Shown: positions 4,601 to 53,979 of the stretch, one piece after another | Position numbering within the stretch: position 1 is the first letter of the stretch | Layout: each line of letters begins with the position of its first letter | NCBI GenBank assembly: GCA_002719815.1 | Contig: PBET01000024.1 | Coordinates: forward strand, 3,393-67,392 | DNA length: 64,000 bases | Reading direction: 5' to 3' | Source: Methanobacteriota archaeon | GTDB lineage: Archaea; Thermoplasmatota; Poseidoniia; Poseidoniales; Poseidoniaceae | The notes under the pieces: model-generated | What the model saw: only the letters and a program-made list of their open reading frames with translations | What the model was told of the DNA's origin: nothing | Databases searched by the model: none | Made by a program: the position numbers and the translations under genes

Positions 4601-6558
4601 TCTTCTTCGACGACACCAGAGCGTACTCGTGCAATGGCGATGTCAAGTTCTGGGAGGTTGACTCGACCGTCTCCGTCAAGATCGATGAATTCCATGAGAC
4701 GTGCGATATCCCATGGAGGCAAATCTGCAATGTCTGTACTTCGTAGTGCCTGCTGGAGTTCATAGCCATCGATAAGGCCAGAGTCATCCAAATCGATTGA
4801 ACGGAAGAATTCAAAGATGCTCATGTCCTTCTTTGCGAGATAGTCTGACAGCATCTCAAGTTCATTCTTTTCAACTGGGAATTCATCAACTTCATCGTTG
4901 TGGAGGGTTGATGAAACTTCGATAATGGTCATTCCGCCATCGTCTTCAACATCGGCTCCAACGACCAAAACGGTATCGACACCAACGCCGCGTTGCAAGA
5001 GCTTTCGAATCGAAGATTCACCACGTTGCATGGAATAACGACTGATGTCCGAGGTTGTCGAAACGGTTGTATCGACTTTCATTCCTCCAATGGATGTTCG
5101 AATGAGATTCAAGAACAAGAGAATGACACCAATCGAAGCGAAGTAGAAGAGAACGGATGCGGTTAAACTGAATCCACCATCTGTCATGACCACGTCTTCA
5201 CTACCGGAATCGAGAAGTGCTTTTTCGGTGAAGTCACCCATCAACTTCGCAACTGTCGAAGTGACGGCACCAAAGGCGATGAGCATGGTTGACAGGGATG
5301 CAGATGATGAGGATGCGAGTTTACGGCCGCCTGCTAATGGATAGGATTCTGCGACACAGGCGACGGCCATAAGTCCGCCAACAGTCCACATGAAACCAAC
5401 ATCAACGGTTGTGGCCATGTCATTCAGTGCGCCAAGGCCAATGAACACGTCAAGTGAAGTGAAGTATCCTCCAATTGCATACAGTGGGAAGAAGACCATT
5501 GCAAGCGTTGCCGCTAATGCGCCTGGTCGAGATACAACACCTGTTGCATTGCCAAGCGAGGTCATGATGATGTTCACCGAACCTGCCATAATTGGCAAGA
5601 GGGCAAGCGTCATGAGGATGGCCCCGAGATTCTCGAGGAGTGTCCCAGCATCAGCCGATGATAGCATGAATGGAGGCAAGGTGAAGAAGAGAAGAAGAAG
5701 GCTTGCCTTCGTCATTGAATCGGACCAAATCGGGCGACTTGCTGCTCGAGGAACTACGTGATATGCAACCGAGAAGATAAGGGCGATAAGCGCCCAAGAT
5801 TGTGTCATTCGCTCTCCGAGCCAAACTGTTTGGGTTGAGTCAGCCAGTTCCCCAAAGAATCGGAATTGTGAACCGAAGATGAACGATGCAAGAGCCATGA
5901 ACATGAACCAGTTGCTTGCTGAGATGATGTCGCCCTTTCGTTGTGCCACTGTTAGGAGAACGTTGATCATCACTGCAATGATGATAAATGAGCGCAATGC
6001 ATGCATGAAGAGGTCTTGAATAAGGGCTTCATTTGCGGCTGTTAAATCGATAACAAGGCCAAGGATTGTTGGTAGAAGCATCGATGAAATGGTGAGGACT
6101 GAAAACAACAATCCAGTCAAACTGGCATTGGCTTCGCTTGCGAGACGGCCTGCTCCTGCTCGTGCTGCAGCAACCAAGCCACCGCCGACGAGAATCGAAA
6201 TTAGACCAGTCATCAAGGTCACATCAACGAATGTAGCCAACGCGCTTCCATCGTCATATTCCCATCCAATGCTTGCGAGCGAATCGAGGGCTGTAGCATC
6301 ATAATCGTGCCATAGTGCGAGGAATGTGCCGATTGCTGCAAAAGTTAGCCAGATCATTCCAAGGTTCATCCACGTCTTCGATCCACTTCCTTTGTCATCG
6401 TTGAAGAGATCAACAATTCCAGCTGGTGCTTTGTTGAGCAGAAAAAGGCCAAATTGACGCATCGGTTCGGCCATGTTTCCAATCCCACGTTGAAGATAGA
6501 ACGTAGCAAAACCAACCACCGTGAAGAAGAAGAAAAGTGCGATAAATACTGCATCCAT
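4597..6558 (-). CDS. Polytopic membrane protein (at least 12 hydrophobic segments) with a C-terminal pair of canonical EF-hand Ca-binding loops
   Basis: The EF loops DLDDSGLIDGYE (nt 4759-4794) and DLDGDGRVNLPE (nt 4648-4683) both fit the 12-residue D-x-D-x-[DS]-G-x-[IV]-[DN]-x-x-E pattern. The N-terminal roughly 480 aa are strongly hydrophobic. Confidence 0.7.
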   Translation of the reverse strand: MDAVFIALFFFFTVVGFATFYLQRGIGNMAEPMRQFGLFLLNKAPAGIVDLFNDDKGSGSKTWMNLGMIWLTFAAIGTFLALWHDYDATALDSLASIGWEYDDGSALATFVDVTLMTGLISILVGGGLVAAARAGAGRLASEANASLTGLLFSVLTISSMLLPTILGLVIDLTAANEALIQDLFMHALRSFIIIAVMINVLLTVAQRKGDIISASNWFMFMALASFIFGSQFRFFGELADSTQTVWLGERMTQSWALIALIFSVAYHVVPRAASRPIWSDSMTKASLLLLFFTLPPFMLSSADAGTLLENLGAILMTLALLPIMAGSVNIIMTSLGNATGVVSRPGALAATLAMVFFPLYAIGGYFTSLDVFIGLGALNDMATTVDVGFMWTVGGLMAVACVAESYPLAGGRKLASSSSASLSTMLIAFGAVTSTVAKLMGDFTEKALLDSGSEDVVMTDGGFSLTASVLFYFASIGVILLFLNLIRTSIGGMKVDTTVSTTSDISRYSMQRGESSIRKLLQRGVGVDTVLVVGADVEDDGGMTIIEVSSTLHNDEVDEFPVEKNELEMLSDYLAKKDMSIFEFFRSIDLDDSGLIDGYELQQALRSTDIADLPPWDIARLMEFIDLDGDGRVNLPELDIAIARVRSGVVEEE

Positions 6559-9897: not shown

Positions 9898-11778
9898 CTA
9901 GAATTTCTTTTTAGGACCACCAGGGAATAACCAGCGACTGGATTTTTCAGACGTTGCTTTGTCTTCGCTCTTCTCATATTTTTCCCTTCTAAAGAATATG
10001 AGCGATAGGAGGGCAATGATTGCTATTGCTGCAATCATGAGGTACATTGTGTTGGCATCGAGAGAGGATGCTTCTTCTGAGCGCGTGCCATCATTCGGGT
10101 ATGCATCCGTGTTATCCCCAACGCCATCGCCATCGGTATCGGTTGTTTCAGATGCATCATTTGGAAACGCATCAAGAGAATCCACTGTTCCATCGCCATC
10201 GGAATCTCTTTCGATTATTTCAATCGCATTCTCAACAACAATTGTTTCTCGGATACCGCCAATTTTCAGCAACGTTATTTGGAGATCGTACATCGACATT
10301 TCTGCGAATTCTGGTGCCTGAATCTCAACCTTCCATACACTATTTTCCGAGGCAGTGACTCTACCGCGTAAGTCTGATTCATCTTCCCAATCGCCTTGAG
10401 GTGCTGGACCCGCCACTGAGGCGAATGGAGCGATGTTGTAATCGATTGGTTGAGGCGTGTTTTTGTCGCTTCCTGAACCAATTCCTAATGGTCCATATTT
10501 ACCGCGACCCCAGCACGATACCGACCCGTTTTCATACAGACCACAGACATGGTCATAATTCACGCTCAAATCAACGATGTTTGTTGGCCCTTCAACGAAC
10601 ATTGGTGTAAGATAAATACCGCCAGTGACACCAATCCCAAGGCGGCCAAAGTGATTGTGCCCCCAACAGTATAGACTACTGTTTTCTAAGATAGCACACG
10701 AACTATGTGGGCCTACTGAAACCGATACTGCTGATGAACTGTCTGGCAATTGAGCATAGACTGGAATGAGTCGATTGGTGGTAGTATTCTCTCCAAGTTG
10801 ACCATAATTGTTCAAACCCCAGCAAGTGATTGAGCCGTTGTCAAGTAGAGCACATGAATGATGGTCTCCAACAGAAAGATCTGTCGCAGCGCGCCCTTCA
10901 GGTAACTCGACATTTGAAGACGGGGTATGAATCGTATCGCTCGTATCGCCATTTCCAAGTTGACCCACATTGTCACGGCCCCAGCACATAACGCCTCCAT
11001 CGTCAAGAAGTATACAGGTGTGTGTTGCTCCAGGCTCGACTTTCACAACTTTCCGATCCGATGGAGTCGTAATTGTTTGAGGCGTGTATTTGTCGCTTGT
11101 ATCCAAATTTCCGTTTCCTAAAGCTCCATATGAGTCAAGACCCCAGCAGGTCAAGTTGTCATCTTCTAAGATTGCACACGTGTGCTTAAGTCCCATACCG
11201 ATTGATTTCACACCCTTACCATCTGGAAATTGTACCTTCACGCTGGGAGATTTGTAGGTATTGGTTGAGTCATCACCGGCCTGCCCGTCTTCATTGAATC
11301 CCCAACAACTTGCAGAGTTGTCATCGAAAATGATGCACGTTCGCAATTGTCTCGCATAAATCTGGTCTACGCTTTGACCTTCAGCAATTGAAACGAACGA
11401 AGTAGGCTTATTCAAATTCGTTGCATCGCCACCATCGCCAAGTTGACCATAATTATCGAGCCCCCAACACATAGCTGAGCCATTTTCAAGGATTGCACAA
11501 CTATGCGAGTTTCCAGTGGCAAGTACAGATGAATGTGCTTTAGAAGCCATCGTATCCACTGAGACGAATTCATAACGAATTGTCGAGATACCAACATAAT
11601 CACTGAGATCAATGCTACATTCCATTGACTCGGCTTGGTTTACGTTAGCCTTCGGGCAATCTAATTCGAGTGATGTGCTTTCTTCAGCAATTGTTTGAAT
11701 AGGAACTAGAAGCAGAATTACAAGACAAATTCCTGCCTGAAGGTGAAGCAACCTGCCTCTCGACGGGGTTTTGACCAT
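9898..11778 (-). CDS. Surface protein: signal peptide, 7 RCC1 repeats (beta-propeller), thrombospondin-type-3-like Ca-binding repeats, C-terminal TM anchor
   Basis: There are seven CWG-x-[DN]-x-x-G-x-LG-x-G repeats (for example MCWGLDNYGQLGDG and MCWGRDNVGQLGNG). DSDGDGTVDSLDAFPND and DTDGDGVGDNTDAYPND follow. The C-terminus is MIAAIAIIALLSLIFF plus a basic tail. Confidence 0.8.
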   Translation of the reverse strand: MVKTPSRGRLLHLQAGICLVILLLVPIQTIAEESTSLELDCPKANVNQAESMECSIDLSDYVGISTIRYEFVSVDTMASKAHSSVLATGNSHSCAILENGSAMCWGLDNYGQLGDGGDATNLNKPTSFVSIAEGQSVDQIYARQLRTCIIFDDNSASCWGFNEDGQAGDDSTNTYKSPSVKVQFPDGKGVKSIGMGLKHTCAILEDDNLTCWGLDSYGALGNGNLDTSDKYTPQTITTPSDRKVVKVEPGATHTCILLDDGGVMCWGRDNVGQLGNGDTSDTIHTPSSNVELPEGRAATDLSVGDHHSCALLDNGSITCWGLNNYGQLGENTTTNRLIPVYAQLPDSSSAVSVSVGPHSSCAILENSSLYCWGHNHFGRLGIGVTGGIYLTPMFVEGPTNIVDLSVNYDHVCGLYENGSVSCWGRGKYGPLGIGSGSDKNTPQPIDYNIAPFASVAGPAPQGDWEDESDLRGRVTASENSVWKVEIQAPEFAEMSMYDLQITLLKIGGIRETIVVENAIEIIERDSDGDGTVDSLDAFPNDASETTDTDGDGVGDNTDAYPNDGTRSEEASSLDANTMYLMIAAIAIIALLSLIFFRREKYEKSEDKATSEKSSRWLFPGGPKKKF

Positions 11779-12872: not shown

Positions 12873-13499
12873 ATGAAGCAGGCAACAGACGTCTTCAACG
12901 ATTGGGCACACCGAGGCAAAGACGAGGGTATGGAACGTGGACACAGTCCTGCTGTCAATGAAATGTTGGAGGTTGCTTTCCAACGAGTCAATCAAGGAAA
13001 TCAACCCTTTTCATTCGCTGATTTAGGATGTGGAAATGGCTGGGTTGTACGATTGGTTGGTGGGCATGAGAACTGCATGCGAGCTGATGGTTTTGATGGT
13101 GCACCGCACATGATTGAGAAGGCAAACAACATTGATTCGAAACATGGTTATCATCTTGCTCTGTTTCCTGATACACAACCTCCTCAACAATACGATTTCA
13201 TTCATTCAATGGAATTCATTTACTACCTTCATGAACCTCAACAGATGCTACAATCAATTCACGACGATTGGTTGGCCGATGGAGGTTGGGCTGTAATTGG
13301 AATCGATCATTATGCGGAACATGAGGAAAGTCTTGGTTGGCCAGAAGCCCTCGATGTACATATGTCGACATTTACAGAGCAGGAATGGATTGCAATGTGG
13401 AATGACGTTGGATTTACTGAAATTCATGCGTGGAGAGCAAACCAATCCGAAGGAAAACCAGGAACACTCGCCATCATTGGGAAGAAAAATCAGAATTGA
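12873..13499 (+). CDS. Class I SAM-dependent methyltransferase
   Basis: The SAM-binding motif I FADLGCGNGW is present. ATG at 12873 (MKQATDVF) is preferred over ATG 12819. The 3' end overlaps the convergent AddA-like gene by 26 nt. Confidence 0.65.
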   Translation: MKQATDVFNDWAHRGKDEGMERGHSPAVNEMLEVAFQRVNQGNQPFSFADLGCGNGWVVRLVGGHENCMRADGFDGAPHMIEKANNIDSKHGYHLALFPDTQPPQQYDFIHSMEFIYYLHEPQQMLQSIHDDWLADGGWAVIGIDHYAEHEESLGWPEALDVHMSTFTEQEWIAMWNDVGFTEIHAWRANQSEGKPGTLAIIGKKNQN

Positions 13500-16400
13500 T
13501 CCCCAACTCAAGGCCCTGTGGTGCACACATTCGTACATCGCCATTGAAAAATGGACACTTTTTGCAGATATCAATCGCTTCCATTGGTAAGCGCTTCGGT
13601 TCGGTAACACCGTTTGAATCTGCAGTAAGGGTTGCCATCCAATGCAGGAGATTCATCAGTTCTTCTTCTGCTTCTTTGCACATCTTATCCGGCATTTGAA
13701 CAAGACGTCCCGTCGTGGCGATCAAGAGTGCTGGTGGCCGAATATCTCGTCTCTTTTCAATGGGTTTTCGTTCTTCTTGCTCACGCAAAACCAATGAATA
13801 AAGCATCAGTTGCAAACGATGATTTCGTAGCATCTGAACCTCCGCTTGGTTTTGTGGTTCAAACGAGAGCGGTTCATTCAGCGTCTCGTACAACGGGTGC
13901 AGTTCGAGTTCTTCCTCTCGCGCACCTGTTGTTTTCAAATCAATAACCTGCAACCAAGCCTGTTGATCTTCACATCCTGCAACCACAAGATCTGCCTGCC
14001 CTTCAAAGAGAACATTGACCGCATCAATCACTGTTCGAAATGACTGGTCAAGTTCTGTGAGTGGTGTTCTCAAACGACCTTTCAGGTCGATTTGTTGATT
14101 GAAAGAAAACGACAACTCCGTTCGCAACCCTTCGATTTCATGGCCATGAATCGCTTGACCTTCGACCATTTTTCCTAAAGCTCCATTTGATAGTCGTTTG
14201 GCCAAATCAATGATTCGTTGCCTCGTTTGCTTCTGTTCATCGCTGGACAATCGATGCCACTCGGGTTGTGATTGCGTTGCATCATCGATTTCCTTATCCG
14301 ATAACAGGTGGTTTTGTTGAGCATTCAACCAAACTTGTCCTAATTCAAAGCCTGTTGTCTTCATTTCTGCTGGATTTGCAATTCCAATTTCAACGAGTCT
14401 GTGGAACATCGATCCAAAGGCAGTTGCCGATGGCCAGCCGACAGAATTAGCCGTTACATCTTCCCCATCGGACCGATCTTTAGTATCCTCCTCACTCGAT
14501 TCGAACTTCGTTTCTTGATGGAGTTTGAAAGGCTCAGATTGCCAGCCTCGTACATGCGACAACCAATAGCGTCGTCGGCAGGAATGGGCCGTATCTAAGC
14601 CATGGGCTGTCATCTTTAACGTCGGGGTTTGATAAACAACGGCTTGTTCAATCTCACTGTCATCTGTCGCTTGTTCAACGAGTTGTTCCATGTTCAGCCA
14701 GTTGGAAAGTACGGAAGTTGGTGATTGTTCGGCAAAGCAATCAGGATGGTGATACATACGCAAGCTCTGTAGCGAATCTTGCATAAATCCACTCGACGTA
14801 TACAACGCATAGGGATCAAACTTCAACGTCTGCTCGCCATATTCTGCTAAACGTTCTCCTTGAACATCGTTGGTAAGACTCCAAGGCTGTTCATCGCCTG
14901 ATGCCAATCCCATGTATCGGAAACCTTCAAGCATCAAATCGCCCATGTTGTTCCCTTTTGCATTCACCTTCATCTCAACCATTGCATCATCACTCAACAA
15001 GCAAGGAGCATTTGGCGAGCCAACGAAGATCAAGCGATCTTTCACCCTGGTAAGTGCAACATAGAATTGACGACGCAATTCAGCTTGATTTTGTGCCTTG
15101 TTCATTTGTTCAGCCAACATCCACAAGGCATCTTCAGGCTTCTCTTTCGACTTCCATGGCTGAATACGGCCTGCAATTACATCTGGTGTAATCAAGACAT
15201 TGTTCTGAGCTTCAATGCTTGAACTGCGACGTCCTGCTTCAAACAATCCTGTGACGATCACAACCGGCGCTTGGAGACCTTTTGCCCCATGAATTGTCAT
15301 GATCTGAATCGCGCCACTTGTTGGTAAAGAACGGGCTTGGGGACCTTTGTTCCCAAGTGTTCCGAACGCCTTCATCTGATCAAGGATCGAGGCGGGTTCG
15401 TGTCCTGATTCACCACCTAATTTTTGCAACATTGCGTACCATGTTTCAGCAACTTGTCGTTCAGATTCATCTGGGAATGCGATGAGGAGATCGCTGTAAT
15501 CCAAGACAGCATCAAAGATTTCGTACATGGCGCCAGAATGTACCAAACGAGCGCATGCTTCCATGAGTGGCCCTTGAGGTTCGCCATCAAAATAGTCGGA
15601 AAAGAAGTGCCAATAATTGTCCACATCCTTCGTTTGGAAAATCTCCTCAATCTGTATGGATGATGCCCCAATAATTGAGGAACGAAGGACGGAATGGGCG
15701 GCATGTCTTGACCCTGGTCGTGCGAGAAGTTCCAACATAGCCATCAACGGTTGAACGACGGGTTGCTTGAGCAACTCACCTTGTTTATCAGCCATAACCG
15801 GCAATCCACGAGCTTGGAGTCGTGCGATTAAGTCGGGAATGTGCTTTCGTGAGTGGACGAGAATCATCACATCTTCAGGCAGAATTGGCTCTTCTGGTTC
15901 TACTTCAACAAAATCTTCCGCTTCTGTTGACCATATCCGAGTTGGTGAGCCTCGAACCAAGGCATCCAATCGAGAAGCGATAAGTTCATGTTCCAAATGA
16001 CGGAGATTTGCATTTCCTGCATCGAACAAGTTGTACCCTTGTGTAAGGCCAAGTGGTAGTTCCTCGGTATCGTTTTGAGTCGGAAGAAGCCACTCGATTG
16101 TCCCTATGCGTTCCGTATCTCGTCCAGATTCTAAGGGCTGAGCAGTTGCATGGAAATCGCCTGGGAATTGGTGATGCCGATGATTAAACGTGTCATCAAA
16201 CATATTGTTGAGCGTTTGAAGTAGGCCAGGTGCTGTTCGGAAATTCGTTCTCAGTTGAATATGGCCTTCGGCTCGTTCAACGATTGTATCATCATCGATG
16301 GCGAGACCTGCGTCGTCAATTCCATAGGAAACGTAGTCGTACGGAGCTGATTTCTCATCTCGGGAATAATCAGCGGCGGAGATGAATGAACCAGATTCAC

Positions 16401-18447
16401 CACCTGCGCCGACGGGCCGAGGATCTCGGCCGTGCCCTTCTTGAGTAAAAGTCTCCATCCGTTTCTCATTAGCCTCGATCTGGTTCGCTACACGAATGGA
16501 TGCAACCATTCGACGCATAACCGTAACCTCAGCCTGACGGAATCGGTAGATGCTTTGCTTCATATCACCAACAATGCAGATGGTTGGGTCCCAGGGACCT
16601 GCTGGTTCAGGGTGTTCTTCGGAAATGCCCTCTCTTCGCCCCCAAAGTCGCGAAAGGAGACGAGCATGTTCTGGATTCGTATCCTGATACTCGTCGATAA
16701 TGAAGGCTCGATATCGTGCACGAATTTGCTTTAATAGCGCAAATCTTCGTTGAAGATCAACGTATTTCTCTTCATCACGTTGCATAATGGTCAGTGCTCT
16801 TCGAATATGTTCATCCGACCATGGCTCATCACCAAGGTCATCCAATGCCTGGACAGCCTCGGGCGGATACCAATGACGAACGATGGCTGGACAGCGAACA
16901 AGGAGTAAATCGCCGACCATGACTTGAACATCGTCAAAATCATGCGCTTCTTCTTGTGCCTTCAAGTGACGAAGTAAATCCTGACAGCCTGAATGAACTG
17001 TATACAAATCGTTCAGAACTTCAACCTGAAGGTCACTAGAAACCCTCTGCATACCAGATGGTGGTTCGGTACCCAACGAAACGCCCAGTGGATGGCGGTC
17101 GTATTTTTCATTCGCATCTCGATGGACAAAAGGCCGTACAGGATTGAGGCAGTAGGCAACTTTTGCAAGCATCAACACCAGACGCCCATCACTTGGGTCA
17201 TGAATCCGGTTTTGCAAACGAGTTGCAGCCTTGGAAGCATCTTTCATGAGTTGTTCCTTGGTTGCCTCCTCAGATTTACGCTTGAAGACTGATGACCACG
17301 TCATCAAGCCTGAAGGCCAGTCTGCTAGCGTATTTGCTCGGGGGAAGTGCCCGTCCTTGAGAATGGTTGGTGCTGGCTCCTTCAACTGTGCATGCGATGC
17401 GGCCGCTGCAACCACCTGGTACAACCACTGAAGTTGTTCTATCGGAGTTGTAGGCAGTGCTTCCCGTGCCAAATGAGCGAGTTGATTGAAACGAGTATTT
17501 GTTGTAGCAACTTGCGCTGGAGCGACAATCACAGAATGATGTTCGAGGAAAACATCAACCCATTCGTTAAGGAATGCATGTACATCTTGAACGACCGGAG
17601 TGATAAGGTGGTGACACTCCTGTAAAATCATGTCCTCAATAAGTCGGTAATCTGGAGGTGTGTCACCATCCCATGGTAAACCAGTTCGAATCGAACGTGA
17701 GCGAAGCCGTCGCTTAGATTCCTCGACAAATAGCGACGATTCTAGCAATCCTTCCAATGCCGTTTGTGCACTTGCTTGACCTCCAAGCCGGATTGCGAGA
17801 CGATTGCGGGCAGCGATGAAAGCATCAGCTGATTGAAGCATGCCCGCTTCGATTGCATCGCGAGCATTTCGTATACGCCAAGCCGCATTCAATGCTTGAC
17901 TTCTCAAAAGAGGGGCTTTTTCTTCAGGAAGTTGTTCTCGACTGACGTGGATTGCTACGAGATCGATATGCGGTGAGAGAATTTCCGACAGGAACGCATC
18001 GATGGTCGATATTGGTGATGATTCAAGCAACGACATCAGCATCGAAACATCGCCTTGGTGACGCAGACGTGGGTCATGCATCCCCATTCGGTCATCGTCT
18101 TTTACAGGATGAGCACGAAGCGATTGAATCCTTTGTCGAATTCTTGACCGCAGTTCAGATGCCGCCTTTCGAGTGAAGGTAATCGCGACGATTTCTTGTG
18201 GCAACAGTCCTTTCCATTCATTCAATGGAGTGCGATCTTTCTTTGCTGCGAGAACGTGGCCTGCACCATACTGTTCCAACCGAATTGGTGGCGGCAAAAC
18301 ATGCGTAGCTCGTTGCTCTGCTGAAAGAAGATGCTGAACATATCGTTCAGCCATAACGGTGGTTTTACCTGTTCCAGCACCAGCATCCAATGCGATGTGT
18401 TGATCGAGATTAAGACCCAGTCGCTGACTTCTGTTGAAGGAAATCAC
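13474..18447 (-). CDS. AddA/RecB-like SF1 (UvrD-family) helicase fused to a C-terminal PD-(D/E)XK nuclease
   Basis: The helicase motifs occur in order: DAGAGTGKTT, ITFTRKAASELRSRI, IIDEYQDTN, VGDMKQSIYRFRQA, LRTNFRTAP, IMTIHGAKGLQAPVV, RRQFYVALTRVKDRLIF. The nuclease motifs are GQADLVV, VIDLKTTG and QLMLYS, flanked by Cys residues (SCRRRYW ... CKKCPFFNGDVRMC). The GTG start overlaps the upstream stop (GTGA at 18444-18447). Confidence 0.85.
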   Translation of the reverse strand: MISFNRSQRLGLNLDQHIALDAGAGTGKTTVMAERYVQHLLSAEQRATHVLPPPIRLEQYGAGHVLAAKKDRTPLNEWKGLLPQEIVAITFTRKAASELRSRIRQRIQSLRAHPVKDDDRMGMHDPRLRHQGDVSMLMSLLESSPISTIDAFLSEILSPHIDLVAIHVSREQLPEEKAPLLRSQALNAAWRIRNARDAIEAGMLQSADAFIAARNRLAIRLGGQASAQTALEGLLESSLFVEESKRRLRSRSIRTGLPWDGDTPPDYRLIEDMILQECHHLITPVVQDVHAFLNEWVDVFLEHHSVIVAPAQVATTNTRFNQLAHLAREALPTTPIEQLQWLYQVVAAAASHAQLKEPAPTILKDGHFPRANTLADWPSGLMTWSSVFKRKSEEATKEQLMKDASKAATRLQNRIHDPSDGRLVLMLAKVAYCLNPVRPFVHRDANEKYDRHPLGVSLGTEPPSGMQRVSSDLQVEVLNDLYTVHSGCQDLLRHLKAQEEAHDFDDVQVMVGDLLLVRCPAIVRHWYPPEAVQALDDLGDEPWSDEHIRRALTIMQRDEEKYVDLQRRFALLKQIRARYRAFIIDEYQDTNPEHARLLSRLWGRREGISEEHPEPAGPWDPTICIVGDMKQSIYRFRQAEVTVMRRMVASIRVANQIEANEKRMETFTQEGHGRDPRPVGAGGESGSFISAADYSRDEKSAPYDYVSYGIDDAGLAIDDDTIVERAEGHIQLRTNFRTAPGLLQTLNNMFDDTFNHRHHQFPGDFHATAQPLESGRDTERIGTIEWLLPTQNDTEELPLGLTQGYNLFDAGNANLRHLEHELIASRLDALVRGSPTRIWSTEAEDFVEVEPEEPILPEDVMILVHSRKHIPDLIARLQARGLPVMADKQGELLKQPVVQPLMAMLELLARPGSRHAAHSVLRSSIIGASSIQIEEIFQTKDVDNYWHFFSDYFDGEPQGPLMEACARLVHSGAMYEIFDAVLDYSDLLIAFPDESERQVAETWYAMLQKLGGESGHEPASILDQMKAFGTLGNKGPQARSLPTSGAIQIMTIHGAKGLQAPVVIVTGLFEAGRRSSSIEAQNNVLITPDVIAGRIQPWKSKEKPEDALWMLAEQMNKAQNQAELRRQFYVALTRVKDRLIFVGSPNAPCLLSDDAMVEMKVNAKGNNMGDLMLEGFRYMGLASGDEQPWSLTNDVQGERLAEYGEQTLKFDPYALYTSSGFMQDSLQSLRMYHHPDCFAEQSPTSVLSNWLNMEQLVEQATDDSEIEQAVVYQTPTLKMTAHGLDTAHSCRRRYWLSHVRGWQSEPFKLHQETKFESSEEDTKDRSDGEDVTANSVGWPSATAFGSMFHRLVEIGIANPAEMKTTGFELGQVWLNAQQNHLLSDKEIDDATQSQPEWHRLSSDEQKQTRQRIIDLAKRLSNGALGKMVEGQAIHGHEIEGLRTELSFSFNQQIDLKGRLRTPLTELDQSFRTVIDAVNVLFEGQADLVVAGCEDQQAWLQVIDLKTTGAREEELELHPLYETLNEPLSFEPQNQAEVQMLRNHRLQLMLYSLVLREQEERKPIEKRRDIRPPALLIATTGRLVQMPDKMCKEAEEELMNLLHWMATLTADSNGVTEPKRLPMEAIDICKKCPFFNGDVRMCAPQGLELGINSDFSSQ

Positions 18448-21400
18448 TTTGTTTCACCTCCAATGGATGCAGAAGAGCACGCACTTGCGAGTGAACAATA
18501 CTTGCAGTGATCTCCTGGTGCAGGATGATTCCAGCCGAGTTCACTTGCATCCTGTGCCCGGATTGCGGCAGTAATTCTTGAACTCATCCACGCCCGGAAA
18601 CTGTTACTCTCCGGTGTTGTTCCTTCAGTTGGTATACGGAAATGATTTCCAGAGTAAAACGTTCGAGTTCCGATGGTTCGGCTTTCCTCAAGAAAAGCAA
18701 AACTCGGATCGAGTTCAAGGAGATGTTCCGTATCATCGCCCACTTCTGAGATACCAACGCCAATGACGCGATCGCCTGGATGTGCTAATTCCCAAGCACG
18801 AGCATAGAGTGCTAATTGAATCTCCTTGAAGAGGCCCGCGACATGTCGAATGCCATCTTCACCAGGTTTTGGTCCTTCGATGGTTTTGAGGTCTCGAATG
18901 ATGATGAAGCGCTTCGCAGGAGGTCCACTTCCATCAAAGAAAAGTGGCATCCCTTCTGCGCTCTCATCATAGAGCCCACGCTCGGTTAGTCGTTCAAGGA
19001 GCGATTCATCGAGAACAAGGTGATCAACGCGATCAATTCGCCCACGTAACTTGATGCATGAGGTTTCAAATTGATCATCAAACCCTTCGATTTCTACACT
19101 CAACTCCGTTCCATGTTGCAACGCCCATTCACTGGCAATTGGTGCTGCTGAGGTCAGGTTGAGATCTGCTAAAAGTAGACGTCCGAGTCGCCCTCCAATC
19201 GGAAGCGTTCCGTTGCCTTCAAGCCAATCGTTCCAATCTTCAGGCGAGCAGCCAATCAAATCATTGCAGCGATGAACGGAAACTGCATTTGTTCTCGATA
19301 ACCAGGGAGCGATTTCAGACAAATGCCAGAGCAAACTTTCCCATATTTCTTGGTTTGATAGTGAAGTTCCTTGATGCATTGGCGTACCTTCGGCCAGTGG
19401 CGTCCCTCCTACTTCAATTCCAAGAAGTGTCATGAGATGTTCCTCAATGGCATGAACCAACGTTCCTTTTGTGAGTGGCGCAATGTCTTCAGAGGGCTCG
19501 GGAGTGTTGTCCGTGGCATCGAGTGTCTGTTCAGACCATGCTTGTCGGGGGCAAGTCAGCCAAGGTGTTAATCGGCTTGTTGACCATGTCTTTGATTCCG
19601 TTTCGATCGGTTGACTGGAAAGAATTTCGTTCAGGCTTGGTGAACCATACGTAGGCGGAGGAAGCGGACGAGGGTCGAGTGAAGGCCCCCTCGAATTGCC
19701 ATTCTTCTTGTATCCGAGATGCGGATAGGATGCTGAGGTTCGACCACCACTCACCTCGGCTTGAGAGACCGTGGGTTCGATGACAAGGCCCGTTGTTGTG
19801 AGCAAGCTCTCCCGTATCTCCCATGGCAGAATGCTTCCATTTGCAAGTGGCTTGAATTTTGGTTGGCGACGATAGCGATCGAGATGCACATCGCGTTCAA
19901 ATCGATTCGCTATGGTATTCGCTGACTGAATCGTTCCACTCGGAGTCCGCAACGCTTTCAATTCAAGACCAGTCTGTTGTTGCAGATCTCGTTGCATGTT
20001 CTCTGCTCGTTCAAGTTCCACTTCACCACCGTTCACAGATAATGAAGAAGTTCGATATGTCAGCCAATTTCCTGTTTCTCGAGTCACAATTGACCATCCA
20101 GCACCATCAGAAACTTCTTCCTGCAGGAACGCTGGAATGGCCGCAAGATTCCGTAAATCACCTTGCAGTTCAACGCCTGAAAGGTACTCGACAACCGGTG
20201 TCGAATTACCCGCAGATTCATCATGTTCGGTATCGAAGAGGATCACTTGTTGGCTTGAATTTAGCACAGATTTGAAGAGATGACGCGCCTGACGAACGGG
20301 TAAGTCTCCATCATTCAAGCCTAATTCGACTCGAACAGAATCGTCAATCCAAGGCACTCGCTCAGGCTTCATCGACCATGACTCAGCATCAATTCCAACG
20401 AAGAGAGTGAGGTCCGATGCTACCCCAAACGCTTGCTTTGGTGTACAGATATGTACATCGAAATGACGAACTCGATTCATAGGTAGTTTGGTTTGATCGG
20501 CTGCTAACCGACAAAAATCAATGAATGGAAGACTCGACTGATATTGGAGCAAACCATCAACGGATCGGACCCATGATTGCACGGCACCTACGGAGGCATC
20601 GTAATGCCGTGTACGTTCAAACAACGCCTCCCAGTCACATGCATGTAAAATTGTGCTGAGTACGTCTCGTGGCGTTTTACTTGGCTCGGGCAAGGGTAGA
20701 GAAATGTTTGATGACGCGCCAACGAATGGATTCGCAAGGAAGTTTTTCTCGGTTTCATCGAGTAACGCAGTCCATGATGTTGCAAGGCATTGCAACCACC
20801 ACTGCGTCTCCTCAATCGCTCGCAATTCTTCCTCACGACGATAGGCTTCAACAGCATATGGTTTTGCAACAGCTAAAGAGCCAAGCCACCGTTGGAGCGC
20901 TCCTTTTCCGCCAAGAACGTGGAAACTGCGGCCGATGTTTTCAATCACGTCCAAGTGTGGCCTTGGCCGCCAATCCTTCTTTTCTGGATGGGTCAAATCG
21001 GAAAACAATTTGCCAATAATCGGGAACGCCTTTGACTGGGCGATATCGAACAGTTTAGCTGTTGACCATGCATCTTGGCCATTGGGAATTGACAGAAATC
21101 GAAGTATTGCTTGTATAGCAGAGGTACTTCCAACTGAATCTGCTTGAGTATCGCATGTAATTCCAATGCGCTGCAGACGGCGAATCCATTCCTTGTGGCG
21201 GCCCTTGTCGGCATCGATGAGAAGAATACGTCCTTGTTCATGCTTGTTGAAATGATTGATGACTGAAATTGCGGCATCTGGAATCTGCGAGGCTCGGTCG
21301 AAACTCAGTAAGTGGATTCCTTCTGTCGCGTAATCAGCGTTACCGGATGCTGGAGGCAGAACGGTATGACGTGGGACCCATTCTGGCAGTTGGTCATCGC

Positions 21401-22148
21401 GTTCCAAAAGCGGTAGTTCATCATCGATGTATGCTCCATGAAATCCGAGACGGAATGAGCCTGTGACACAAAGATGATGGATTGGGCTTCGCACTGATAA
21501 GGCCTTGAGAAACTGCTTCTCATCTTCATGAAAGTCAGGCGGATGGTTGAGAAGGAGGATACCACGAATTGCTCCAAGCGTGTAAGGCGTTGGAACATTC
21601 AAATCGGCGAGTGCTGAACAAATTCGGGCGATGACGTGGTGCTCATGCAGAAGATTTTCGTTTTCAAACGATGAAAGAATCCGATCTGCTTCAAATGCGC
21701 CGGGATCTTCTTCCCACGTCGAAAGGATACCATGTTTTGTTGCATACGCATGGAGAGAAAGCAAACGCTCTGATTTTGAAAGTGTCCATGGCCTGGTCAC
21801 GTCGGGATGGAGGCGAGGAAAACGATGATCTTGCGCTGCAGAGGCAAACTTTTCGTGAACTTGTACAAGACCAGTCGATGTTCTTGGCACAAGAACAGGT
21901 AGTCGGAGATCGATCGTTAAGGACTTCAAGAGTCGTTGAAGCGTTGTGTGTCTGCTTGAATCAACAGAGCCCGCTTTCTGAAGAATGGCCTGGATAGACG
22001 AGGACCGAGTGACTTCATTCGGATAGATGACCAATAAATCGTCCCGTCCTGTTGCAATTTCATCCACAACCCAGGACGGGACGGTCGTATCGAAAGGGCA
22101 TGACTCTACTGTGATGTTCTCAGCCATATCCTCCCCACCCATCTTCAT
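18444..22148 (-). CDS. AddB-like subunit: long helicase-like scaffold without Walker A plus a C-terminal RecB-type nuclease with Cys4 (Fe-S staple-type) signature
   Basis: I found no GxGKT motif. The C-terminal motifs are GRIDRVD, IIIRDLKT and QLALYARAW, bracketed by LTCPRQAW and HCKYCSLASAC (C-x2-C-x5-C). The gene is translationally coupled to the AddA-like gene. Confidence 0.6.
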   Translation of the reverse strand: MKMGGEDMAENITVESCPFDTTVPSWVVDEIATGRDDLLVIYPNEVTRSSSIQAILQKAGSVDSSRHTTLQRLLKSLTIDLRLPVLVPRTSTGLVQVHEKFASAAQDHRFPRLHPDVTRPWTLSKSERLLSLHAYATKHGILSTWEEDPGAFEADRILSSFENENLLHEHHVIARICSALADLNVPTPYTLGAIRGILLLNHPPDFHEDEKQFLKALSVRSPIHHLCVTGSFRLGFHGAYIDDELPLLERDDQLPEWVPRHTVLPPASGNADYATEGIHLLSFDRASQIPDAAISVINHFNKHEQGRILLIDADKGRHKEWIRRLQRIGITCDTQADSVGSTSAIQAILRFLSIPNGQDAWSTAKLFDIAQSKAFPIIGKLFSDLTHPEKKDWRPRPHLDVIENIGRSFHVLGGKGALQRWLGSLAVAKPYAVEAYRREEELRAIEETQWWLQCLATSWTALLDETEKNFLANPFVGASSNISLPLPEPSKTPRDVLSTILHACDWEALFERTRHYDASVGAVQSWVRSVDGLLQYQSSLPFIDFCRLAADQTKLPMNRVRHFDVHICTPKQAFGVASDLTLFVGIDAESWSMKPERVPWIDDSVRVELGLNDGDLPVRQARHLFKSVLNSSQQVILFDTEHDESAGNSTPVVEYLSGVELQGDLRNLAAIPAFLQEEVSDGAGWSIVTRETGNWLTYRTSSLSVNGGEVELERAENMQRDLQQQTGLELKALRTPSGTIQSANTIANRFERDVHLDRYRRQPKFKPLANGSILPWEIRESLLTTTGLVIEPTVSQAEVSGGRTSASYPHLGYKKNGNSRGPSLDPRPLPPPTYGSPSLNEILSSQPIETESKTWSTSRLTPWLTCPRQAWSEQTLDATDNTPEPSEDIAPLTKGTLVHAIEEHLMTLLGIEVGGTPLAEGTPMHQGTSLSNQEIWESLLWHLSEIAPWLSRTNAVSVHRCNDLIGCSPEDWNDWLEGNGTLPIGGRLGRLLLADLNLTSAAPIASEWALQHGTELSVEIEGFDDQFETSCIKLRGRIDRVDHLVLDESLLERLTERGLYDESAEGMPLFFDGSGPPAKRFIIIRDLKTIEGPKPGEDGIRHVAGLFKEIQLALYARAWELAHPGDRVIGVGISEVGDDTEHLLELDPSFAFLEESRTIGTRTFYSGNHFRIPTEGTTPESNSFRAWMSSRITAAIRAQDASELGWNHPAPGDHCKYCSLASACSSASIGGETK

Positions 22149-22239
22149 GCGTGGCGACAGTATAAAACTGAACGTTCAAAATTTTGTTATTTTTTGTAGG
22201 GTGTTGGCATTTTTCATCGATTCTGAGGTGGATGTCGGA

Positions 22240-22293
22240 TAACATGAATTGTAACATGAATAATTCATGTTTTGTATAATTCAGAACATGAAT
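22240..22293. promoter_or_regulatory. Operator-like array: three direct (T/G)AACATGAAT copies and a perfect 19-bp palindrome AACATGAAT-A-ATTCATGTT
   Basis: The direct copies lie at 22240-22249, 22252-22261 and 22284-22293. The palindrome spans 22253-22271. A further ATTCA-N5-TGAAT lies at 22279-22293. The array ends 7 bp upstream of the TATA-like box. Confidence 0.5.
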
Positions 22294-22300
22294 CGTTGGA

Positions 22301-22308
22301 TTTAAATA
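22301..22308 (+). promoter_or_regulatory. Archaeal TATA-box-like element TTTAAATA upstream of the TFB-like gene
   Basis: It matches the TTTAWATA archaeal consensus. It lies 114 nt upstream of ATG 22422, which is itself preceded by AGGAGG (22409-22414). Confidence 0.45.
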
Positions 22309-22421
22309 GTACGGCGTCCATAAAGATACTCCAGCGCGTCGGTCCGAGCCCAATCCCACTTATTCCACCAACCCCTCGGACTTAATCATGTTGGAACAAA
22401 CAAGAACAAGGAGGACAAAAT

Positions 22422-23495
22422 ATGACGAAAAAGTGTGAAGAATGTGGCAGTTATGACTTGAAAGCGGACAACATCCGAGGCGAGGTGGTTTGCAACGATT
22501 GTGGACTTGTCATCGAGGATCAAGCCTCGGCGACCCAAAACGACAATGCAGGAACAATGTGGGGCGAAAATGCATCCAACACTCCGACCAAAGATGAAGC
22601 CAAGATTAAGACTGGCTCGAAGGGTAATGCGCTTGGTTCCTACATCGGTAAGCCAAATGAAGCGAAGGGCAAGTGGAAAATCCTACGACACCTGCACGCT
22701 CGAGATGTCAAGGACCTGCACCCAATGGCGCAAGCTACGATGGATGCTGCAAAGGAGTTGGCTGGCAAGGACAACGCCATGAAGGCGAAGAAAGTCATCA
22801 CCCTAGCGACCGTTCCACTCGATGATGAGAAAGCGAAGGCGTTGCGAGAAATCGCTGATGAGGAGGAAATCATCCTTCCAAAGAACTCTGTTTGCCGAAA
22901 GAAAACCCGAGGGGGAAGCACCCAGAACAACGAGAAGTTGCTTGCGCTGGGTTGTCTGCGAGCACATCAGGAGCGAACTGGCAAAATCAACATCGATTGG
23001 CCCCAGATGGTTGAAGGCACTGGTTTGACCATGGCTCAGGTTGTTGATGCTGCAAAAGTCATCATGAAGTACCTTAATCTATGCGAGAAAGCGCATCTTA
23101 TCGAAGAGCGAGCAGACCGAAGAACTGTTCATCTCGAGTTGCGAAACACCGAAATCGAGAACACTACGCTTCGACTGAAGCAACTTCTCGAAGATGTTGA
23201 TGAATCCGTGAAGACGCAAATCATGGACGATTACAAGCAACGACTCTTCACCTTGGGTGAGCCGACATTAGGCGGTTCACCGTTCTCAAGCGAGAACATT
23301 GAGGCCAAGGTCCTCTGCGCAATTCTCTTCCAAATCTCATGCGAGTCCTTTGGTGTTGAACAAGGACGGCTCGAGAACATCGCTCATGCGATTGGTCGAT
23401 GTCGAAACACCATCAAGAACCGCCTCAAGTCCCTTCGAAAGAAGGTGGCGTCTGGTGAGCTGGTTGACTTTGGTGTCTTGCAGAAGAAGCACTGA
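22422..23495 (+). CDS. Divergent TFB-like protein (TFIIB-type N-terminal zinc ribbon)
   Basis: The N-terminus KKCEECGSYDLKADNIRGEVVCNDCGLVIED is a TFIIB-type ribbon. The remaining roughly 320 aa are helical and basic. I cannot align them confidently to the B-reader (GPEWRAF) or the two cyclin repeats. Confidence 0.5.
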   Translation: MTKKCEECGSYDLKADNIRGEVVCNDCGLVIEDQASATQNDNAGTMWGENASNTPTKDEAKIKTGSKGNALGSYIGKPNEAKGKWKILRHLHARDVKDLHPMAQATMDAAKELAGKDNAMKAKKVITLATVPLDDEKAKALREIADEEEIILPKNSVCRKKTRGGSTQNNEKLLALGCLRAHQERTGKINIDWPQMVEGTGLTMAQVVDAAKVIMKYLNLCEKAHLIEERADRRTVHLELRNTEIENTTLRLKQLLEDVDESVKTQIMDDYKQRLFTLGEPTLGGSPFSSENIEAKVLCAILFQISCESFGVEQGRLENIAHAIGRCRNTIKNRLKSLRKKVASGELVDFGVLQKKH

Positions 23496-23503
23496 ATCGT
23501 GAG

Positions 23504-24442
23504 ATGGATTATCTCATTAAGGAGAGGTTCGTCCAGCGATACATGACTCGATTGCTCGTTGTTGGAGTTTTAGTTGTCCTGATGGTTTCTGTTGTACCTG
23601 TAGCGCATGCTGCGGAGATTAAAGAACTTGAAACAGGCATGCTCTTTGGTGGACTTCATGGAATGGCGAATGAGACCATCGTCGTCAACAGTAGCCTAGA
23701 AGATCTTCCTGCAATTGCTGAAGATTACACAGCCACCTGGTGTGGAAATTGTGTTGAAGTCGGCAATGCGCTCGAGACTGTGGCGGAGAACATCAGCATG
23801 GAGATCTATGCTGTTCATCGGAACATCTACGAGACTCAGGATCCACTAGGCAACGAGAATGTCGACGCACGCTTTAGGGACCGATACGATATCTATGCGC
23901 CAGAATTCAAACCTCCTGTGGCCGGTATCAATGGCAAGTACTCCCTTCGTGGTAGCAACCCTGTTGGTGATTCTCTGGAATCTGACTTTGCAGACTTAGC
24001 ATCACAACCGCATAATCTTGGAGATGGTTCCGTCACAATGACATGGACACCAACGGGTGATAATTCAGGAACTGTCGCTTGGAGCATTGATCAATCAACC
24101 AGTGCAGTTTACAATGTAACCATATGGATGGTCGAGAAAGAAGCTTACTTCCCAGATGGTACAAACAACCAGATCTACTACCATCACATTGTTCGTGAAA
24201 TCATTGATGTGGGAACTGTTACTGAAACTGGACTGAGTACGGGAACTGAGCAGATTACCTATGCCGATGCATACGATGATGATGACCTTGAAGTCCATAT
24301 CATGTTCCATGAGTACATCGAACGTCCTGAAATACAAGACGAGACCCCAACAGAACCTACCTCAGAGGATACACCCTTCCTCTCCATGCCTTTGACGATA
24401 CTTGCCCTTCTTGCAGTAGCCCTACGGCGACAGGATCAGTAG
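23504..24442 (+). CDS. Membrane-anchored extracytoplasmic thioredoxin-like protein
   Basis: An N-terminal signal/anchor (LLVVGVLVVLMVSVVPVAHA) is followed by the thioredoxin-type motif YTATWCGNCVEV. A C-terminal hydrophobic anchor (PLTILALLAVALRR) closes the protein. Confidence 0.45.
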   Translation: MDYLIKERFVQRYMTRLLVVGVLVVLMVSVVPVAHAAEIKELETGMLFGGLHGMANETIVVNSSLEDLPAIAEDYTATWCGNCVEVGNALETVAENISMEIYAVHRNIYETQDPLGNENVDARFRDRYDIYAPEFKPPVAGINGKYSLRGSNPVGDSLESDFADLASQPHNLGDGSVTMTWTPTGDNSGTVAWSIDQSTSAVYNVTIWMVEKEAYFPDGTNNQIYYHHIVREIIDVGTVTETGLSTGTEQITYADAYDDDDLEVHIMFHEYIERPEIQDETPTEPTSEDTPFLSMPLTILALLAVALRRQDQ

Positions 24443-51851: not shown

Positions 51852-51954
51852 AGTGAGTTGGTAGAGGGCGCTGACTTTAACCTAAGTGGAAGCAGGAATG
51901 TCAACAGCATGGTTCAAGCGATAGTTCTTCAATCATCCATGATTGGTTGTGAAT

Positions 51955-52770
51955 ATGGAACTTCTTGAAGGCGAACGGGTGCTCGCTTTCGACTTGGAAA
52001 CGACCGGTATTAGCACCTCAAGAGACCGTATTGTTCAGTTAGCGCTCATTGGCTCAGATGTTGATGGAGCTGAAATTTCATACGATCGATTGGTCAATCC
52101 ACGTCGACCGATTCCCTACGATTCGCAACGAATTCACGGTATTTCAGATGCAGACGTTCGAGGAGAGCCTGATTTTGCACAAATAGCTGACAAAGTATCA
52201 GAATTGATTGAAGGTTGCGTCCTTATCGGCCACAACGTTCGCCAATTCGACTTACCAATGCTAAGGAATGAATTTCTTCGTATTGGAGCGTTACCTCCAG
52301 AACCGAAGGCAGTACTCGATACGCTCGAGATGGTTCGTCGACTAAAATTACCCCGTCCGCATCGGTTGGGTGCACAATGCAATCGACATGGCATTTCGCT
52401 TGAAAATGCCCACACTGCATCTGCAGACGCTGCTGCATCATTGCTTCTACTTTGGAAATTGGGACTCGATCATCCAAGTTATTTTCGAAAATCACTGAAG
52501 GAAGTCGAACAGTGGTGTGCAACTGGTTCAACTGCAAAAGCCCAATCCGATCTTGGACCACAACTCGATGATTTGGAAGTCGTCGATTCGAACGGGATGG
52601 TACGCCGAGATGGAGAACATATGGTCCTCGCTGTAGGTCGCCATCGTGGACGTCATTTGGAAGAGTTGAATGATCTTGATCCTCGTTACTTGGACTGGTT
52701 GCTTTCACCGAATGGCATTGATGATTCTGAAGCCGTTGAGGCGATTAAGGCATACCTGAATCAGCAATAG
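51955..52770 (+). CDS. DEDDh 3'-5' exonuclease (DnaQ/epsilon-like) with a C-terminal DUF3820-like extension
   Basis: Exo I is AFDLETTG, Exo II is LIGHNVRQFDLPML and Exo III is HTASADAAAS. The C-terminal extension reads GRHRGRHLEELNDLDPRYLDWLL. I verified ATG at 51955. Confidence 0.8.
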   Translation: MELLEGERVLAFDLETTGISTSRDRIVQLALIGSDVDGAEISYDRLVNPRRPIPYDSQRIHGISDADVRGEPDFAQIADKVSELIEGCVLIGHNVRQFDLPMLRNEFLRIGALPPEPKAVLDTLEMVRRLKLPRPHRLGAQCNRHGISLENAHTASADAAASLLLLWKLGLDHPSYFRKSLKEVEQWCATGSTAKAQSDLGPQLDDLEVVDSNGMVRRDGEHMVLAVGRHRGRHLEELNDLDPRYLDWLLSPNGIDDSEAVEAIKAYLNQQ

Positions 52771-53899: not shown

Positions 53900-53979
53900 G
53901 AACGAGGGCTGGCCTTGAAGAACATGAAACCTACGCTTGAAGCCGAAAGTGTTGAATGCCTCCTTGTTGAGTTTCACCT

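Follow-up and report, generated by a model that had tools for sequence, protein, structure and literature searches.

A palindromic half-site array conserved across the Poseidoniales, probably the operator of a divergent TFB paralogue gene

Archaeal autoregulatory operators of the Lrp/AsnC or MarR type, such as that of Ss-LrpB, have several boxes, phased at regular intervals, in the promoter of the regulator's gene, and the TGM element has the consensus TATCAC-N5-GTGATA. In the Ptr2 system of Methanocaldococcus jannaschii, the TFB-RF1/PF1088 system of Pyrococcus furiosus and the TrmBL1/Tgr TGM system, one or more dyad sites lie immediately upstream of the BRE/TATA, and the BRE looks weak (PMC4158304); the repeat array described here is arranged in the same way. 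However, its consensus, AACAWGAAT-N-ATTCWTGTT, matches none of the consensus sequences of these three systems, its target would be the gene of a general-factor paralogue instead of a metabolic operon, and an extra conserved copy is present in the transcribed leader. With the Lrp and MarR operators the array shares helically phased boxes (spacings of 10 and 22 bp), a single locus and a location in the regulatory DNA of a transcription-factor gene; it differs from them in that the adjacent gene belongs to the TFB family, the third box is only a half-site, and the gene of such a regulator was not found nearby. Bacterial LexA/SOS boxes, which read CTGT-N8-ACAG or GAAC-N4-GTTC, are likewise palindromic operators in control regions beside recombination-repair genes, in our case AddAB-like genes. 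Their sequence is unrelated, however, and the array is located upstream of the TATA box of a regulator-like gene without overlapping the repair-gene promoter.

The paralogue itself is best compared with Sulfolobus TFB3, which is also a lineage-specific non-canonical TFB with a four-cysteine Zn ribbon, a regulated promoter of its own and a link to DNA-damage processing genes (PMC6101594, PMC6101591). TFB3 is without the C-terminal HTH/cyclin core and carries a coiled coil instead (PMC6101594), whereas the Poseidoniales paralogue is predicted to keep two cyclin folds; the TFB3-type architecture was therefore not found, and the two proteins are not orthologous. PMC5817253 describes TFB3-dependent promoters as using a short ANTTTC-type motif, in contrast to the 19-bp dyad found here.

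The array was analysed in its 64-kb window, that is, the whole stretch of DNA under study, from a Candidatus Poseidoniaceae (Marine Group II) archaeon, and its features are collected in Table 1. An earlier note, made from the letters of this DNA, had listed three direct half-site copies, the palindrome, an ATTCA-N5-TGAAT dyad and the boxes TTTAAATA and TATAAAAC, and every one of them was found in its place. The intergenic length had been given as 273 bp and is probably about 294 nt, because orthologue comparison places the start of the AddB-like gene at an ATG at 22127 (MAENITVE), preceded by GGGGAGG. The one-mismatch copy in the leader was absent from that description. Searches with Pfam and NCBIfam returned UvrD-helicase, PDDEXK_1 and addA/recB models on the AddA-like and AddB-like genes. 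The product of a neighbouring gene, a membrane-anchored, exported, thioredoxin-like protein of 312 aa with a WCGNC motif, was considered as a regulator or partner and rejected, as it is not DNA-binding.

Table 1. Coordinates of the array, the two divergent promoters, the leader and the flanking genes. Positions are those of the window; column identity is given where it was obtained, with the number of aligned loci in brackets where applicable.
Feature	Position	Strand	Column identity	Remarks
AddA-like helicase-nuclease gene	13474-18447	-		UvrD helicase and PD-(D/E)XK nuclease
AddB-like helicase-nuclease gene	18444-22127	-		Divergent from the TFB paralogue
Putative AddB-side TATA box GTTTTATAC (- strand letters)	22160-22168	-	0.91	
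TATAAAAC	22161-22168			Conserved; at the AddB-side TATA position
AddB-side T-block TTTTGTTATTTTTT	22182-22195	-	0.94	Invariant
Distal copy (T/G)AACATGAAT	22240-49 (9-mer 22241..22249)	+	0.59 (12)	3 nt before the palindrome; strain-specific
Direct copy (T/G)AACATGAAT	22252-61			At the left arm of the palindrome
Palindrome AACATGAAT-A-ATTCATGTT	22253..22271	.	0.93 (12)	Perfect 19-bp dyad; probable core operator
ATTCA-N5-TGAAT	22279-22293			Left arm in the non-conserved spacer
Proximal half-site (T/G)AACATGAAT	22284-93 (9-mer 22285..22293)	+	0.91 (12)	13 nt after the palindrome
BRE position CGTTGGA and putative TATA box TTTAAATAG	22294..22309	+	BRE position 0.57 (12); TATA box 0.90 (12)	BRE G-rich, poorly conserved
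Putative TATA box TTTAAATA	22301-22308			7 nt after the last half-site copy
Spacers			0.46-0.57 (12)	
Structured 5' leader	22330..22395	+		Helix P1 enclosing hairpin P2
Helix P1	22330-22338 with 22387-22395			CCAGCGYG segment pairs with CAUGUUGG
Hairpin P2	22341-22348 with 22375-22382			Inside P1
Leader near-copy AATCATGTT (+ strand letters)	22384..22392	-	0.98	One mismatch to the half-site; 30 nt before the start codon
Shine-Dalgarno GGAGG	22409..22413	+	0.95 (over 22408-22414)	
TFB/TFIIB-family paralogue gene, 357 aa	22422..23495	+		Zn ribbon, linker, two predicted cyclin folds

The palindrome is a true dyad with 9-bp arms and a 1-bp spacer, and its half-site centres are 10 bp apart, i.e., about one helical turn. 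The proximal half-site has the orientation of the left arm, abuts the BRE position, and is centred 22 bp (two turns) from the centre of the right arm. A separate repeat search of the region recovered the half-site families identically. When both strands of the window were counted, the exact 9-mer AACATGAAT occurred five times, four of them within 53 bp and the fifth at 40590 inside a large coding ORF; copies with one mismatch were not enriched across the window (32 observed versus 36.7 expected). First-order Markov shuffling of the intergenic region yielded any 9-mer (with its reverse complement) in four or more copies in only 9 of 5000 shuffles. As a lone palindrome with 9-bp arms is expected by chance about once per 64 kb, the significance of the array rests on its repetition and its conservation.

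Conservation was followed in 18 MGIIa loci, whose proteins are 51-96% identical, and 12 of these were aligned for the footprint. All 18 orthologous loci kept the palindrome with 0-2 mismatches; its distance to the start codon is fixed at 149-151 nt (195 nt where a subclade bears an insertion), and a recurring order was observed: the palindrome, a 13-nt non-conserved spacer, the co-oriented half-site, 7-8 nt, and then TTTAAATAG. This last distance of 7-8 nt held across the MGIIa loci, and the geometry was different in the MGIIb-like clades, from which the proximal half-site is absent; within MGIIa the half-site was degenerate in one locus (L007). The column identities (Table 1) make it clear that orthologous promoters retain the site as the non-coding DNA around it diverges. 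The conservation in orthologous regions that the earlier note had asked for was thus clearly present, in the 18 MGIIa loci as well as in distant clades, and its proposal of a dedicated multi-site operator, placed immediately before the BRE/TATA of a gene for a transcription factor, is strongly supported by this phylogenetic footprinting.

The proposed three-copy array itself stood only in part. The palindrome and the proximal copy were conserved, whereas the copy at 22241 was peculiar to this strain, being absent from L030, where the protein is 96% identical, and from all other orthologues. Similarly, ATTCA-N5-TGAAT is present in the window, but its left arm falls in the non-conserved spacer and is strain-peculiar. 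Neither the distal copy nor ATTCA-N5-TGAAT is conserved, and both were rejected as functional parts. As an unbiased control, the palindrome was searched for in the 450 nt preceding each of about 70 canonical TFB genes from other archaea, and the best match there had 5-8 mismatches as compared with 0-1 in full orthologues. In a locus search of metagenomes the patterns matched canonical-TFB Zn ribbons; the 80 loci obtained contained about 8 true orthologues, and the rest served as negative controls.

An exact scan for AACATGAATNATTCATGTT, which has 18 specified bases, was performed over 596 Gb of species-representative genomes and returned 17 matches. Seven came from Poseidoniales/MGII MAGs (GTDB), and all seven sat between the addB-like and the TFB-like genes; the other ten, of which about nine or more are expected by chance, were scattered over unrelated bacteria with one Thermoproteota MAG. 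Five of the seven Poseidoniales matches belonged to distant clades with a GC content of 0.43 to 0.56, in which the paralogue is 25-28% and AddB 29-35% identical to the proteins of the window. Since the exact dyad is retained at protein identities of 25-35%, the DNA element is better conserved than the proteins that flank it. The divergent synteny of addA-addB with the TFB paralogue was kept in MGIIa, the MGIIb-like clade, L037 and L057/58.

A separate proximal half-site is missing from the distant clades, where the dyad was found 14 nt upstream of a CTTTAAGA box. In L057/58 the corresponding spot is occupied by a degenerate dyad, ATCAAGAAC-A-TCTCWTGTT. Palindrome and TATA-like box are separated by 14 nt in the MGIIb-like clade and L057/58 and by 29 nt in MGIIa. 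In the MGIIb-like clade another TATA-like box, TTTTATTG, stands immediately before the palindrome, and additional half-site-like copies occur at other positions in L037. Such rearrangements, both the missing proximal half-site and the extra copies of L037, have the appearance of the site turnover expected of an operator.

The earlier note had also recommended a search for a regulon, and this search disclosed no further sites. In the 64-kb window no other intergenic dyad with up to three mismatches was found, the near-matches at 6767, 27896 and 48422 lying inside sequence that is coding or probably so. Dyads with up to two mismatches were confined, in about 300 kb of Poseidoniales DNA mostly from the same region, to the orthologous ones, one per locus, and a second exact copy was not found in any GTDB Poseidoniales genome by exact matching. 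The absence of a second target locus, judged genome-wide by exact matches and in about 300 kb by near-matches, would be unusual for a trans-acting regulator encoded elsewhere; a small degenerate regulon may nevertheless exist.

The TATA box and TSS of the TFB-paralogue gene, and the promoter function of this region, were assigned from the sequence and are to be read as putative. Among all genes of the window, only this one has a perfect TTTAWATA in front of it, namely TTTAAATAG. An attempt to derive a local BRE consensus from other promoters of the window failed, as only this one such box precedes any gene. Downstream of the box the leader is structured, and the conserved CCAGCGYG, with which P1 starts, begins about 22 nt after the TATA box. 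As P1 thus begins where the TSS is expected, the promoter assignment, and through it the placement of the putative operator upstream of the promoter, gains support. The minimum-free-energy topology was identical in every short-leader orthologue folded, with z-scores from -1.7 to -5.0. In P2, changes on both sides were seen in seven of the eight pairs, and none of 500 shuffles reached the observed covariation score; P1 was 93% paired, but its variation was one-sided only. Rfam gave no match at E <= 1 over 22100-22460 on either strand. The covariance model R1, built for the leader of the closer subclade, gave no hits in the subclade of 53% identity or in the distant clades; the leader of the 53%-identity subclade has the same topology with different sequences (CCUGC with GCAGG).

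The near-copy in the leader is the best-conserved block of the region, and its distance to the start codon is kept even where a 45-nt insertion has entered the leader. Part of it coincides with the 3' strand of P1. In the 53%-identity subclade, however, P1 has a 3' strand displaced by 3 nt, yet AAUCAUG remains conserved, so pairing alone does not explain the conservation of the leader copy. The copy may serve as a DNA site of low affinity downstream of the promoter, as an element recognised in the RNA, or as both.

The product of the downstream gene was labelled TFB-like in the earlier note, and the predicted structure bears this out. By sequence models nothing was detected in the 357-aa protein except the Zn ribbon (PF08271, 36 bits against a cut-off of 29), in which C5, C8, C24 and C27 are invariant. 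An AlphaFold2 model based on 42 family members reached a pLDDT of about 85 over residues 100-350 and contains the two C-terminal cyclin-like repeats of the core domain; the linker, residues 33-98, is conserved in sequence, yet predicted to be disordered. Judged from this model, the protein is a genuine but extremely divergent TFB-family member. The canonical Poseidoniales TFB is a separate protein of 307 aa ending in VTEVTIRNRYKEL, named 'transcription initiation factor IIB [Candidatus Poseidoniales archaeon]' and falling in a 90%-identity cluster of 1554 members. The paralogue can be aligned with it only in the ribbon, where the two are 57% identical, and the gene of the window is therefore a fast-evolving, additional paralogue, whose family turned up only among Poseidoniales-type sequences.

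Taken as a DNA element, the palindrome with its half-copy is almost certainly a real regulatory protein-binding site of an ordinary kind, and we consider it likely that the promoter of this Poseidoniales-specific, fast-evolving TFB paralogue gene has the array as its cis-regulatory operator. Protein binding, dimer stoichiometry and the sign of regulation are what we infer from the sequence. A 19-bp dyad with half-site centres one turn apart has a geometry typical of sites for homodimeric, sequence-specific DNA-binding proteins of the wHTH, HTH or RHH type. In MGIIa, the third co-oriented half-site abuts a weak-looking BRE and a near-consensus TATA box, where the bound factor could promote TBP/TFB recruitment, so that the array would act as an upstream activating site; at high occupancy the proximal half-site could permit occlusion of the BRE. 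A separate dimeric regulator is the more likely binder as compared with the TFB paralogue itself.

In archaea, sites upstream of the BRE/TATA activate and sites downstream of it repress, as described for the TrmB family, Ptr2 and TFB-RF1 (PMC4158304). The conserved upstream sites of the array all lie upstream of the BRE/TATA, and activation by TBP/TFB recruitment is predicted from this rule. The conserved leader copy, at about +55 and downstream of the promoter, would be a poor fit to a purely activating model, and if TTTTATTG is a real promoter in the MGIIb-like clade, the palindrome there would lie between TATA and TSS, which is a repressor position. Both observations argue for a repressive or dual role, and we put the chance of activation at about one half.

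Direct autoregulation, in which the TFB paralogue would bind the AACAWGAAT half-sites, for instance as a dimer or by way of HTH motifs in its two pseudo-symmetric cyclin repeats, and act back on the promoter of its own gene, with the leader copy serving as a low-affinity brake, appears unlikely to us. It would account for the finding of the element, across the order, only beside the paralogue gene and for its retention while the paralogue diverged to 25% identity. It would also agree with the outcome of the gene search, since no HTH regulator other than the TFB paralogue was found encoded in the 64-kb window and no other regulator gene in the conserved neighbourhood. Moreover, a C-terminal helix, (I/V)(K/N)(N/S)RL(K/E), which resembles the BRE-recognition helix of TFB, is among the few C-terminal stretches common to distant clades. 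This same helix tells against the idea, however, for its likeness to the canonical TFB recognition helix VTIRNRYKEL points to BRE-type rather than palindrome-type binding, and exact matches at a single locus do not prove a regulon of one target. Autoregulation of this kind is also at odds with the established binding mode of the family: TFB/TFIIB-family proteins bind DNA in monomeric form, depending on TBP, at the BRE beside the TATA box, and no binding of such proteins to free-standing 19-bp dyads 30-80 bp upstream is known. Conserved divergent gene pairs commonly couple a regulator with its target, and the pairing of addBA with the TFB paralogue is kept across clades whose proteins are 25-30% identical. 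One could thus picture an SOS-like shared operator, at which a damage-responsive repressor or activator co-controls the two divergent promoters, the paralogue being a dedicated initiation factor of addBA analogous to Sulfolobus TFB3. There is an earlier example of a TFB paralogue that serves as an activator upon DNA damage (PMC6101594), and the addB promoter possesses an invariant upstream block of its own, the T-block of Table 1. The palindrome, however, is 97 bp or more (MGIIa) to about 160 bp (MGIIb-like) away from the addB TATA box and tracks the TFB-side promoter, the addB promoter lacks the half-site, and TFB3 is no orthologue of the paralogue, as stated above; a shared operator is therefore rather improbable in our judgement. 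Of the two suggestions in the earlier note about the nuclease genes, the one that took TATAAAAC for the box of the AddB-like gene agrees with its conservation in orthologues; control of the nuclease operon by the array is unsupported, only the conserved divergent arrangement linking the two.

A quite different reading places the element at the RNA level, the palindrome being transcribed from an upstream or antisense promoter as a hairpin, or the AACAUGAAU copies pairing with the leader AAUCAUGUU and remodelling it. The leader is structured, its near-copy is 98% conserved and complementary to the upstream copies, and the T-rich block at 22182-95 could in principle serve as an upstream TATA box. 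The variation of half-site position 5 (A or T) bears directly on this point. It was changed in both arms in L001 and L047, as a paired stem would demand, but in one arm only in 5 of 14 orthologues (L012, L016, L044, L045 and L046), which breaks the putative pair, and the two symmetric cases match the roughly 1.4 expected under independence. Position 5 thus varies independently between the arms, so base pairing is not what maintains the dyad; such variation agrees with a protein site in which one position is degenerate, and the idea that the palindrome forms a hairpin or cruciform was rejected. The conserved near-consensus TATA box downstream of the palindrome, the start of P1 at the expected TSS and the missing Rfam match also speak against an RNA-level element, which we regard as very unlikely. 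The idea that the palindrome centre is a symmetric TATA box for bidirectional transcription was rejected, the central base being A, T, C or G by lineage. Finally, a chance repeat, an iteron cluster of a replication origin or a remnant of a mobile element might be thought of, given the chance frequency of a lone palindrome and the similar AACATGAWT array in an iteron-rich intergenic region of a marine viral contig family; for the latter no host could be assigned, its terminase being about 24% identical to bacteriophage terminases and its other proteins without an informative match. Set against this are the order-wide conservation at one syntenic position with fixed spacing and the flanks, which are core housekeeping genes in conserved synteny. 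In addition, orc1/cdc6 was not found among the ORFs scanned, and the cumulative GC skew had no turning point at 22 kb. An origin of this sort is scarcely credible, and a replication origin, a Chi-like site and a mobile element were rejected from skew, 9-mer counts and synteny.

The preferred reading of the array as the operator of the paralogue promoter could be extended to a two-tier, SOS-like circuit centred on an alternative general transcription factor, which we offer as a doubtful possibility. A signal-responsive dimer at the palindrome would switch on the TFB paralogue, and the paralogue would redirect RNA polymerase to the addBA-like operon for double-strand-break repair and possibly to other genes, while the half-site in the structured leader would add a second feedback at the DNA or RNA level; in a variant, the paralogue would itself be the operator-binding autoregulator. 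The pairing with addBA suggests, by analogy with Sulfolobus TFB3, that the paralogue may serve that operon.

Our search of the literature found no report on this element. In kind it would be an ordinary archaeal operator or upstream activating site, and what makes it valuable is the organism and the target rather than any new mechanism. The uncultured Marine Group II archaea rank among the most abundant archaea of the surface ocean, and to our knowledge essentially nothing is known about the regulation of their transcription. The locus offers a cis-element at base resolution which is conserved across the whole order and whose target would be a lineage-specific, rapidly evolving TFB paralogue, in a conserved pairing with an AddAB-like break-repair machine. 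We consider the finding of moderate interest for its depth of conservation, its unusual target and its ecologically important host, and through this locus gene regulation in Marine Group II may be approached in a concrete and testable way.

The 5′ leader of the TFB-paralogue transcript was found to be structured and conserved (Table). Its hairpin P2, enclosed by the terminal helix P1, carried a C/A-rich loop of 26 nt and displayed strong covariation; 3′ of the two helices an A-rich linker was followed by a GGAGG Shine-Dalgarno sequence. No match to this leader was obtained in Rfam, and it could serve either as a stabilising 5′ stem or as a regulatory leader. Many of the paralogue's orthologues have TTG as start codon at the conserved position; where public annotation gives proteins of 364-391 aa, the calls were found to reach too far 5′, into the leader (start issues at loci L009, L016, L012 and L127). 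For the divergent AddB-like ORF, the start most likely lies at 22127 rather than 22148.

In two distant Poseidoniales clades, the MGIIb-like one and L057/58, the leader was much longer, about 165 nt (L031 3560-3790, L058 2200-2500). Two conserved blocks were common to both, TTATCCG...CAGCGAT and AACAWGAA(A)CGGATAA, the second lying about 70 nt 5′ of the start codon; these shared blocks suggest that a different conserved leader element is present there.

On the addB side, the block TTTTGTTATTTTTT was invariant in the loci of MGIIa, the clade to which the window itself belongs. Read in the direction of addB, it precedes the conserved TATA box of that gene by 13 nt; it was missing from the MGIIb-like and L037 clades. 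Two small palindromes were also observed, TGAACGTTCA, whose palindromic form was not kept in orthologues, and TGTTCTTG-GCA-CAAGAACA, which has a TTCTTG core in common with a variant of the operator half-site (one 9-bp arm of the 19-bp palindrome upstream of the TFB-paralogue promoter). Both are probably due to chance.

The exact 19-bp palindrome, with flanking tandem AACATGATT/ATCATGTT copies, was also seen in a family of marine tailed-virus contigs with a GC of 0.42-0.43, where the array is located in a long intergenic region together with about 10 ATTAGTCG iterons. The terminase encoded by these contigs shared no more than about 24% identity with those of bacteriophages. The likeness of the viral array to the host operator may be a coincidence.

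Features in the window and array positions in viral contigs
Feature	Position	Strand	Remark
Structured leader of TFB-paralogue mRNA	22330-22395	+	P1 around P2
Block TTTTGTTATTTTTT	22182-22195		column identity 0.94 (mean conservation, 12 aligned MGIIa loci)
Palindrome TGAACGTTCA	22169-22178		immediately adjoins addB TATA box
Palindrome TGTTCTTG-GCA-CAAGAACA	21879-21897		within AddB-like coding region
312-aa protein gene	23504-24442	+	starts 8 nt 3′ of TFB paralogue
626-aa RCC1-repeat protein	9898-11778	-	
653-aa protein	4597-6558	-	C-terminal EF-hands
RNase T-like DEDDh exonuclease	51943-52770		adjoins second PD-(D/E)XK nuclease
Second PD-(D/E)XK nuclease	52745-53977		adjoins RNase T-like exonuclease
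Viral array	L021:4210, L024:6596, L025:3024, L026:5270-5365		IMG/VR contigs

The 312-aa protein begins with a signal or transmembrane segment, carries a thioredoxin-like WCGNC motif and ends in a membrane anchor. It was encoded near the TFB paralogue across the order, the two genes being co-directional in MGIIa and L037 and convergent in the MGIIb-like and L057/58 clades.

The canonical Poseidoniales TFB, compared at loci L100, L112, L116 and L092 (metagenome), was nearly invariant over contigs with a GC of 0.42 to 0.59 and formed a single 90%-identity cluster of 1554 members (that of P0101), whereas the TFB paralogue of the window diverged to about 25% identity within the same order. The contrast in rate between these two TFB-family genes is striking.
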